Virus record (IMG/VR): IMGVR_UViG_3300031758_000005
Source of the DNA: a virus
Taxonomy: Duplodnaviria; Heunggongvirae; Uroviricota; Caudoviricetes
Strand: one strand, 5' to 3'
Length of the DNA: 64,000 bases
The notes beneath the pieces are model-generated. The model saw nothing but the letters and a program-made list of their open reading frames with translations, searched no databases and was not told the origin of the DNA. The position numbers were made by a program, and so were the translations under genes. Within the stretch, counting starts at the first letter, position 1; each line of letters starts with the position of its first letter. Below are positions 38,097 to 39,050 of the stretch, in pieces.

Positions 38097-38190
38097 GGTT
38101 CCGTAGTTTAACGGTAGAACGCAACGCTTATAACGTTGATAAGCTCTAGATTTGAGCACGGTCTCGGTTCGAATCCGGGCGGAACCACCA
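38097..38190 (+). tRNA. tRNA with UAU anticodon (Ile) and 24-nt variable region
   Basis: GGTTCCG/CGGAACC, A-CCA; CAACG-CT TAT AA-CGTTG; variable hairpin GCTC-TAGATTT-GAGC; T loop TTCGAAT. Confidence 0.85.
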
Positions 38191-38211
38191 AATTTAGGAA
38201 CTATATCGTGC

Positions 38212-38306
38212 GTAGAGAAACATTAATAATGACTCTACTATTCGTGAAAGTCTAACGGTAACTCTTCCATATCGTAAATGATGGTGCAAATCCATTGGAA
38301 GAACAA
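38212..38306 (+). ncRNA. Candidate RNA with a minimal acceptor + T-arm tRNA-like element
   Basis: Hairpin GTAGAG/CTCTAC, then TCTTCCA/TGGAAGA enclosing an 11-nt linker and ATGG-TGCAAAT-CCAT; ends A-CAA. Confidence 0.4.
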
Positions 38307-38314
38307 TTTTAAAT

Positions 38315-38391
38315 GGCTAGGTAGCCCAAAGGCAGGAGGCAGCACTCTCAAAAAGTGTACAGTGTCAGTTCGAATCTGACCCTAGCTACCA
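38315..38391 (+). tRNA. tRNA-Leu(CAA) with short variable loop
   Basis: GGCTAGG/CCTAGCT, A-CCA; GCACT-CT CAA AA-AGTGT; 5-nt variable loop ACAGT. Confidence 0.88.
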
Positions 38392-38407
38392 TTTTTTGAA
38401 AAAGCAG

Positions 38408-38467
38408 TTGACATCAGAAGATGATGTGGTAAGATAAAAGAGTAGTAAGTGATGGTTCTTTAAACAA
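38408..38467 (+). promoter_or_regulatory. Stable-RNA promoter unit 3 with boxA-like motif
   Basis: TTGACA-N16-TAAGAT; repeat GTGGTAAGATAAAAGAGTAGTAAGT (38426-38450); GTTCTTTAAACAA at 38455. Confidence 0.75.
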
Positions 38468-38472
38468 TTTAT

Positions 38473-38548
38473 GCCTATGTAGACCAACGGCAGAGTCACG
38501 AAACTTAAAATTTCGGTAGTACTGGTTCGAATCCAGTCATAGGCACCA
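38473..38548 (+). tRNA. tRNA-Leu(UAA) with short variable loop
   Basis: GCCTATG/CATAGGC, A-CCA; CGAAA-CT TAA AA-TTTCG; 5-nt variable loop GTAGT. Confidence 0.9.
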
Positions 38549-38574
38549 TTTTTTGATAGTTCTTTAACAATTTA

Positions 38575-38860
38575 AGATAGTGGCGGAACAACCTTTGTAT
38601 AGGGGTAACGCACAATAGTGGTGAAGAATCATTATTGGTTGGAGTAATAATGTGCAGTGTAAGTCTATGGCGGATTGTGGGTCGTACAACCTATAATTCA
38701 AGCGTAACGACATCGTAGCTAAAATAAATGATATATCGTAGGTCGTTGTGGGAAACCAATCCCATCAATCGTTAACATAGAGAGTAATTAACTTTATGGA
38801 TTGTGGATGAATAACGGTGCATATTGTGAAACTTGGAGGTAATCATTAGTCCTTCCTATT
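38575..38860 (+). ncRNA. Candidate ~290-nt structured RNA
   Basis: Follows boxA at 38559; no ORF of 60 aa or more; at least seven hairpins, e.g. GCACA/TGTGC, ATAGTGGT/ATCATTAT, TTGTGGGT/ACCTATAA, AACGAC/GTCGTT and TGGGA/TCCCA. Confidence 0.55.
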
Positions 38861-38871
38861 TGAATTTAAAT

Positions 38872-38944
38872 GCGGGTCAAGTGTAAAGAGGGCACGCTGG
38901 TCTACCAGATCAGAAGGCGAAATGCAAAGTTCGGACCCGCTCCA
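38872..38944 (+). tRNA. Non-canonical tRNA-Gly(ACC)
   Basis: GCGGGTC/GACCCGC with U73-CCA (Gly identity); CTGGT-CT ACC AG-ATCAG; shortened T arm CGAA-ATGCAAAG-TTCG. Confidence 0.7.
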
Positions 38945-38957
38945 GTTTTTTTAAAAT

Positions 38958-39050
38958 GGCTCTGTGATGTATGGTGCATGGGCAGACTTATAATCTGTAT
39001 AATCCCTAGATTTGGGTGCTGATAGGGTTCAATTCCCTACGGAGCCACCA
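38958..39050 (+). tRNA. Second tRNA with UAU anticodon (Ile) and 24-nt variable region
   Basis: GGCTCTG/CGGAGCC, A-CCA; GCAGA-CT TAT AA-TCTGT; variable hairpin CCC-TAGATTT-GGG; T loop TTCAATT. Confidence 0.82.

Follow-up and report, generated by a model that had tools for sequence, protein, structure and literature searches.

The locus described here raises the question of why two divergent tRNA genes with the anticodon UAU should share an extra hairpin in which a seven-nucleotide loop displays GAU, the major isoleucine anticodon. The genes lie in a stretch of DNA of 64,000 nucleotides (nt), the IMG/VR virus record IMGVR_UViG_3300031758_000005 (Caudoviricetes), which as a whole is called the window. 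They belong to a widespread variant of tRNA-Ile(UAU); how the arm acts is what we infer, and the reading preferred below is that it may present GAU to the isoleucyl-tRNA synthetase (IleRS) of the host. The genes and their parts are located as follows.

38097..38190, + strand: tRNA(UAU) type A, 94 nt (ARAGORN tRNA-Ile(tat); Rfam tRNA, 62.5 bits)
38129..38131, + strand: anticodon UAU of tRNA A, within the anticodon loop 38127-38133
38143..38157, + strand: extra hairpin of tRNA A, stem GCUC/GAGC, loop UAGAUUU at 38147-38153, GAU at 38149-38151 (from the sequence and the stem covariation of the family)
38958..39050, + strand: tRNA(UAU) type B, 93 nt (ARAGORN tRNA-Ile(tat); Rfam tRNA, 39.3 bits)
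38989..38991, + strand: anticodon UAU of tRNA B, within the anticodon loop 38987-38993
39004..39016, + strand: extra hairpin of tRNA B, stem CCC/GGG, loop UAGAUUU at 39007-39013, GAU at 39009-39011 (from the sequence and family comparison)

The two are genuine tRNA genes, and their source is a jumbo phage from fresh water. The original prediction had placed two divergent UAU tRNAs here; ARAGORN calls them at exactly these coordinates and Infernal scores both above the gathering score of the Rfam tRNA family (RF00005), which is 29. Each forms a bacterial-type cloverleaf with the anticodon loop CUUAUAA. tRNA A combines this loop with a 7-base-pair (bp) acceptor stem, a 4 bp D stem, the extra arm, a 5 bp T stem, A73 and an encoded CCA; tRNA B has a 3 bp D stem and likewise the extra arm, A73 and an encoded CCA. 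The two agree in 62 of 97 aligned columns (64%). Infernal reports an insertion of 21 nt in the variable region of both, which reads ATAA-GCTC-TAGATTT-GAGC-ACGGT in tRNA A (38139-38162) and ATAAT-CCC-TAGATTT-GGG-TGCTGA in tRNA B (38999-39022). The shared 24 nt variable region with the stems GCTC/GAGC versus CCC/GGG had thus been described correctly to the base, including the 19 nt whose removal leaves 5. The pattern CTTATAA-N5-ATAA-N4-TAGATTT has two matches in the window and none in 100 shuffles. The type A sequence recurs identically in 14 IMG/VR loci besides the window and the type B sequence in four, while a fifth locus holds type B with one base changed. When folded singly by thermodynamics, neither tRNA gave a cloverleaf (z of −2.7 and −0.6); because this is common for tRNAs, the genes were judged by ARAGORN, Infernal and covariation. 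Contigs from four metatranscriptome runs cover both tRNAs, arm included and with no joint across the arm, without mismatch in the case of A. Neither mature ends nor strand is visible in contigs from RNA libraries, and DNA carry-over is possible; the gap in RNA-contig cover at 38202-38285 carries no meaning. The cover weakly favours expression and retention of the arm.

A first pattern scan of IMG/VR had given about 20 related phage loci with the same tRNA cluster and three types of long-arm UAU tRNA, namely A, B and a type C with the stem CGC/GCG and the loop UCGAUUG. As a safeguard against circularity, each later scan omitted the feature under test. Two loop-blind scans of viral contigs, anchored on CTTATAA or CTTATAC and a common T loop with a spacing for a long variable region, returned at least 115 distinct long-variable UAU tRNAs, and the counts and percentages for the arm that follow hold among the matches listed. 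The variable region contains AGAU in 112 of the 115. In 108 of these 112 a 7 nt loop with GAU at positions 3-5 is closed by a stem of at least 3 bp, which is exactly 4 bp long in 85 cases and 5 bp in 19. The stem covaries and occurs in at least 32 versions. Loop position 1 is C in 65% and U in 34%; A2, G3, A4 and U5 are each found in 100% of the matches with AGAU; position 6 is U in 71% and G in 19%, and position 7 is A in 72%, G in 17% and U in 11%. The consensus is YAGAUNR, with CAGAUUA as its main letters, and the UAGAUUU of the window is a minority version present in seven of 112. The hairpin is placed between the anticodon stem and the last 5-6 nt of the variable loop, with linkers of mostly 2-5 nt on its 5' side and 5-6 nt on its 3' side. 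The loop TAGATTT, proposed as invariant, is shared by the window genes, whereas across the family the constant core is A-G-A-U in a 7 nt loop; the leading ATAA, also present in both window genes, is not general, and often just AA or other letters precede the stem. In this sample, drawn with the loop left unspecified, 112 of 115 members have GAU; the triplet and the arm that carries it are thus under selection, although coincidence had been allowed for, and mimicry of an anticodon is the interpretation that we attach to it.

When all scans are pooled, at least 215 distinct members of the family are found in 272 loci. The carriers are very different phages and tRNA arrays of metagenome-assembled genome (MAG) contigs labelled with six phyla; among GTDB representative genomes the motif occurs on seven MAG contigs, mostly within multi-tRNA arrays. 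A73 is present in 99% of the family and C4-G69 in 67%, values like those of the Ile(GAU) tRNAs of the same loci and unlike those of the Ser and Tyr tRNAs. Position 38 of the anticodon loop is C in 52%, A in 28% and U in 18% of the family, against A38 in 90% of the Ile(GAU) tRNAs of the same loci, and the equivalent position of the extra loop holds A in 72%. Pairing of the extra loop with the T loop, D loop or anticodon loop was considered and rejected, as these partners vary while AGAU is constant. One carrier is a MAG labelled Candidatus Saccharibacteria, in which a 23 kb contig (locus L186) encodes the two-arm tRNA(UAU) among ordinary tRNAs. The 0.8 Mb MAG gave no TilS-family match, and it is the one carrier among 101 genomes of the order, the other matches being at the control rate. 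Since the MAG may be incomplete or the contig foreign, the idea that a Saccharibacteria lineage uses the two-arm tRNA as its own AUA decoder was dropped.

The arm is near-exclusively tied to the UAU anticodon. In an anticodon-blind scan of viral sequences for ATAA-N4-TNGATT and a T loop, every true tRNA match (about 19 distinct sequences with very different bodies) had UAU. In a second such scan, of metagenomes, for CAGATTA at the right distance from GGTTCGAATCC, 98 of the 99 tRNAs called by ARAGORN had UAU, and most of the uncalled matches either have CTTATA upstream or are cut by the contig end. Among 304 other tRNAs of the same loci with a variable region of at least 12 nt, AGAU occurs in 21, which is the chance rate, and in none of them inside such a 7 nt loop. 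The proposal that the loop is a recognition element fits the invariant core, the covarying stem and the near-restriction to UAU; the partner put forward below is our suggestion.

Inserted variable-arm hairpins as such are frequent on phage tRNAs with class I anticodons (Asn, Pro, Thr, Met, Gly, Cys, Lys, Asp, His, Gln and Trp), usually with 3-5 bp and a GNRA tetraloop cap (loci L117, L129, L133, L185, L223, L241, L345, L383 and others). No anticodon-like loop was seen in the sample in the extra arms of other phage tRNAs (Asn, Pro, Thr, Met, Gly and others), and the idea of a surrogate anticodon therefore does not generalize in this sample. One of these loci (L383, 5824-5911) encodes an initiator-like CAU tRNA of 88 nt in which the loop of the variable-region hairpin, CCUUAUAA, equals a UAU anticodon-like loop; this may be the two-arm design in inverse form.

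The meaning of AUA in the phage was assessed from its codons. AUA accounts for 485 codons in the window, 2.6% of all codons and 37% of those for isoleucine, and it evolves as isoleucine. Codon-level alignments of window genes with related loci show 114 replacements of ATA by ATT/ATC, 74 by GTA/GTT/GTG and 32 by TTA/CTA/TTG; for TTA the replacements are mainly other leucine codons. At the 23 ATA sites of the virion protein encoded at 39153-40385, 120 homologues have Ile in 66%, Val in 20%, Thr in 7%, Met in 6% and Leu in about 0%, and at its leucine-codon sites they have Leu in 82-99%. Since AUA sites evolve as isoleucine, charging with another amino acid, as suggested in the original prediction, is unlikely to be the main mode. 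Serine identity is excluded by A73 in both tRNAs, and the anticodon UAU is wrong for tyrosyl-tRNA synthetase. Anticodon UAU, A73 and an AUA that behaves as an isoleucine codon are together the marks of a tRNA-Ile(UAU) decoder, for which charging with isoleucine is predicted. Use of AUA varies along the window: it makes up two of the 66 isoleucine codons of the DNA polymerase gene, is nearly absent from the clamp-loader gene and reaches 50-64% of isoleucine codons in many virion genes, and its share differs between the two halves of the window (0.31 versus 0.48; Fisher p = 3e-9). This bias fits the usual picture that phage tRNAs serve late genes.

A literature search gave no description of a GAU-bearing arm, the nearest cases being nev-tRNAs, allo-tRNAs and the tRNA-Ile(UAU) of Mycoplasma mobile, and Rfam holds no special family for the two genes beyond tRNA; the search for earlier reports of long-arm Ile(UAU) tRNAs, which had been recommended, thus leaves the arm without a precedent that we could find. 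The tRNA-Ile(UAU) of M. mobile, Bifidobacterium and Neorickettsia are, as far as is known, ordinary class I tRNAs with a short variable loop. Like the window tRNAs, these molecules (also called tRNA-Ile3) have the anticodon UAU, read AUA as isoleucine without TilS or lysidine and combine A73 with a bacterial-type cloverleaf (PMC3575796; PMC8450103). The class I body with a variable loop of 4-5 nt, as in M. mobile, is not what the window encodes, since its variable regions have 24 nt and a hairpin. The bacterial tRNA-Ile(UAU) also depend on an adapted IleRS (Arg865) and ribosome, whereas the window tRNAs have a GAU hairpin and occur in phages that encode no IleRS.

Allo-tRNA(UAU) described by Mukai et al. 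(PMC5389517) resembles the window tRNAs in joining a long arm to UAU. Allo-tRNAs, however, have 8/4 or 9/3 acceptor/T stems, a long D stem that ends in a tetraloop, and serine identity marked by G73 or U73 (PMC5389517), in contrast to the 7/5 arrangement, A73 and ordinary D arms with 7 nt D loops found here; the window tRNAs are therefore not allo-tRNAs, and the allo-tRNA paper makes no mention of a conserved AGAU loop (PMC5389517). The nematode nev-tRNA-Ile(UAU) (PMC3333845) likewise has a long variable arm and UAU. The nev-tRNAs are derived from tRNA-Leu, charged with leucine and weakly expressed (PMC3333845), whereas in the window AUA evolves as isoleucine and the arm has an anticodon-like loop; the matching codon is not read as leucine, to judge from the near-absence of Leu at ATA sites. 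Comparison with class II tRNAs was based on a long arm with a 3-5 nt loop and 1-3 unpaired flanking nucleotides, on G73 for Ser, G34/U35 for Tyr and the anticodon and D arm for Leu. The arms found here differ in shape from those of Leu, Ser and Tyr tRNAs, with a 7 nt loop and longer linkers, and the identity marks differ too, with A73, the anticodon UAU and, in tRNA A, a 4 bp class I D stem. The closest likeness of the extra hairpin is with the anticodon arm of tRNA-Ile(GAU): both have a 7 nt loop that begins with C or U, holds GAU at positions 3-5 and mostly ends in A, and the consensus extra loop CAGAUUA shares five of seven letters with CUGAUAA, differing at the equivalents of positions 33 and 37. 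The hairpin departs from that arm in having A for U33 and U or G for A37, in its stem of 4 rather than 5 bp and in its place in the variable region.

A reason for such a likeness can be sought in the enzymology of UAU tRNAs. G34, A35 and U36 are major determinants for both bacterial types of IleRS (PMC13752280), and C4-G69 is a determinant for the E. coli enzyme (PMC9976931). E. coli IleRS charges tRNA-Ile(UAU) poorly and needs the change W905R for efficient charging, and an unmodified UAU tRNA does not distinguish AUA from AUG on the E. coli ribosome (PMC3575796); the answer of M. mobile to both problems is an adapted IleRS (Arg865) and an adapted ribosome (PMC3575796). In an IleRS paper of October 2026, tRNA-Ile(UAU) is still treated as a rare plain tRNA (PMC13752280). 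No gene for a class Ia synthetase was found in the complete 296 kb relative of the window phage or in a complete 479 kb carrier, and no phage synthetase of the IleRS type in five viral records, four of them at 95-100% CheckV completeness, two of these with the arm; charging must therefore fall to a host enzyme.

We accordingly favour, at a rough probability of 0.4, the reading that the extra arm is a handle offering GAU to host IleRS. The tRNAs A and B would supply decoding of AUA as isoleucine. On the canonical arm UAU would be read by the ribosome, and the extra arm would serve as a recognition handle whose likeliest partner is the host IleRS, an enzyme dependent on G34-A35-U36 and poor with plain UAU tRNAs. 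One phage tRNA could in this way be charged in hosts whose IleRS is unadapted to UAU, and TilS would not be needed. Because a phage cannot adapt the IleRS of its host, a GAU-bearing arm would economically explain both the pattern of conservation and the tie to UAU. More tentatively, the two anticodon-like arms may split identity (GAU, read by host IleRS, perhaps in an alternative conformer in which the extra arm replaces the anticodon arm) from decoding (UAU, read by the ribosome). The loss of A38 from the real anticodon loop together with the A kept in the extra loop fits the model of an IleRS handle.

Several points weigh against this reading. The mimic loop departs from the anticodon loop at its flanks, with A for U33 and mostly U for A37, a position that in the form of t6A37 belongs to the determinants of bacterial IleRS. 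The variable region faces the solvent when a class I synthetase approaches a tRNA, so that a 4 bp arm would need an alternative conformation to reach the anticodon-binding domains. In close relatives (loci L002, L023, L055, L057, L063 and L172) the type B slot holds an ordinary 77 nt tRNA-Ile(UAU); their host may thus charge plain UAU tRNAs, and the arm may be dispensable for charging.

The rival that survives best, doubtful as we consider it, is that the arm acts in decoding: it might aid the ribosome, might aid or block an enzyme that modifies U34 so that UAU reads AUA and not AUG, or might strengthen A-site binding of a weak, all-A/U anticodon. Because unmodified UAU confuses AUA and AUG on E. 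coli ribosomes (PMC3575796), every UAU tRNA in an ordinary host faces misreading of AUG, and the tie of the arm to UAU and to no other anticodon suits such a role, as does the unusual variability of position 38 in the real anticodon loop, which suggests tuning of decoding. A decoding role has no candidate partner, however, and leaves unexplained why the invariant letters are those of the major isoleucine anticodon, at anticodon-like positions of a 7 nt loop with C and A at its ends.

We think it improbable that the arm is instead a handle or decoy for some other protein, either a phage tRNA-binding factor or a host anticodon nuclease or defence directed against tRNA-Ile that would be evaded or absorbed. 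Hairpins that bind proteins typically join a conserved loop to a variable stem, and defence that targets tRNAs is known to be played out around phage tRNA clusters. The family is nevertheless spread over very different phages and MAG tRNA arrays with six phylum labels, and a universal host partner is therefore favoured over a phage-specific one. Very unlikely is a long arm that makes the tRNA a substrate of leucyl-tRNA synthetase or another anticodon-blind synthetase, with AUA read partly or wholly as something other than isoleucine. A73, the long variable region and acceptor features that overlap those of phage Leu tRNAs would allow it, and the nematode nev-tRNA-Ile(UAU) is charged only with leucine in vitro (PMC3333845). 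The codon exchanges (114 against 32), the near-absence of Leu at the 23 ATA sites, the cost of ambiguity at 2.6% of codons, the class I D arm of tRNA A and a 7 nt loop and linkers of 4-6 nt, unlike those of Leu arms, all speak against it, and G73 is absent for charging with serine. Least probable by far is a neutral or selfish insertion spread by descent, which is brought to mind by the extra hairpins on phage tRNAs of many isotypes but is contradicted by the generic GNRA loops of those arms and by an AGAU kept in 112 of 115 despite thoroughly diverged bodies and at least 32 compensated stems.

The window is AT-rich (about 33% G+C) and encodes a family B DNA polymerase, a clamp-loader subunit, helicases, nucleotide-sugar enzymes and virion proteins. 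By its DNA polymerase the nearest isolate is Microcystis phage Mel-JY01, with an identity of merely 42%. The same tRNA cluster is present in an IMG/VR relative of 295,831 bp (G002) rated 100% complete, and the window is therefore taken to be part of a jumbo phage of roughly 300 kb. The stretch occurs in public runs of lake, river and drinking-water metagenomes and in four labelled fungus metagenome. The cluster and two promoter-like sites within it are located as follows.

36390..39149, + strand: tRNA cluster of eight genes, including both UAU tRNAs (ARAGORN, Infernal)
37953..37980, + strand: promoter-like site TTGACT-16-TATAGT, upstream of the Met - Ile-A pair (consensus match only)
38408..38435, + strand: promoter-like site TTGACA-16-TAAGAT with TG, upstream of Leu(UAA), the 294 nt RNA and Ile-B (consensus match only)

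The genes of the cluster are, in order, Lys(UUU), Glu(UUC), an initiator-like Met(CAU), Ile-A, Leu(CAA), Leu(UAA), Ile-B and a Met/Ile2-like gene (CAU); all eight ARAGORN calls were upheld by Infernal, and the order is repeated in about 20 related IMG/VR loci. The codons served include AUA, UUA, UUG, AAA and GAA (and AGA in relatives), which are the preferred A/U-rich codons of the phage. Among the 29 tRNAs of the complete 296 kb relative, the sole isoleucine tRNAs are two long-arm UAU tRNAs. This genome arranges its tRNAs in three clusters, one tRNA-like gene being called with the 4 nt anticodon CUCU, and encodes a transfer-messenger RNA at 190382-190766 with the tag AEDNVISYNFTSRDAVALAA. The initiator-like CAU tRNA of the window (38014-38090) has a U1-U72 mismatch atop the acceptor stem, and its slot in relatives holds versions of 79, 83 or 87 nt with an inserted variable arm. 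To our knowledge all bacterial tRNA-Leu have a long variable arm. The tRNA-Leu(CAA) at 38315-38391 (77 nt) and the tRNA-Leu(UAA) at 38473-38548 (76 nt) are without one; A73 is retained in both, as is a Leu-like D arm in Leu(CAA) at least. The Leu slots of relatives hold these short forms or normal forms of 84-88 nt, and short Leu tRNAs were seen again in other phage loci. Directly 3' of tRNA-Glu, positions 36771-36876 match the wcaG RNA motif below threshold, with 30.2 bits where the gathering score is 42 (E = 0.008), and the phage also encodes a GDP-mannose dehydratase and epimerase.

Between the two Leu and Ile-B genes, at positions 38576-38869, RNA cover is at its deepest in three of the four metatranscriptome runs, with a word depth of about 250-700 against 3-15 for the tRNAs. 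RNA contigs contain a head-to-tail joint from 38869 to 38576; a 323 nt contig equals a 293 nt circle plus k − 1, and loose contig ends match the other end of the element. The 294 nt RNA unit is flanked by the 7 nt repeat AATTTAA. In DNA the insertion (about 38557-38863) is present as a single copy in 14 related loci and absent as a clean indel in six others. An alignment of eight relatives gives a multi-helix fold with 21 compensated pairs in which the two ends pair together, and Rfam yields only a weak manA-like match (14 bits, E = 0.24). The unit is a candidate circular or concatemeric phage RNA. It is followed at 38873-38945 by a tRNA-like element that ARAGORN does not call, consisting of a 7 bp acceptor stem GCGGGUC/GACCCGC followed by UCCA, a 7 bp triloop hairpin and a T-arm-like hairpin; relatives have compensatory changes (GCGAAUC/GAUUCGC, and CUGGUCU/AGAUCAG versus UUAGUCU/AGACUAA). 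This element may be a processing signal for the RNA upstream.

How AUA can be read with no misreading of AUG counts among the classic problems of the genetic code, for which lysidine, agmatidine, pseudouridine or inosine and a co-adapted IleRS and ribosome are the known solutions. A widespread tRNA-Ile(UAU) with a strictly conserved, dedicated arm would add a further one, and it would ride on mobile elements active in hosts with which they share no co-evolution. In annotation, long-arm UAU genes are easily mistaken for class II tRNAs or evidence of recoding. Should the arm be a surrogate anticodon, nature would here have uncoupled synthetase recognition from codon reading, which would be of interest to both tRNA biology and genetic-code engineering. 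For the phages and tRNA arrays that carry it, the two-arm design would, if this reading is true, mean portable charging of a poorly accepted anticodon in any host, without TilS.

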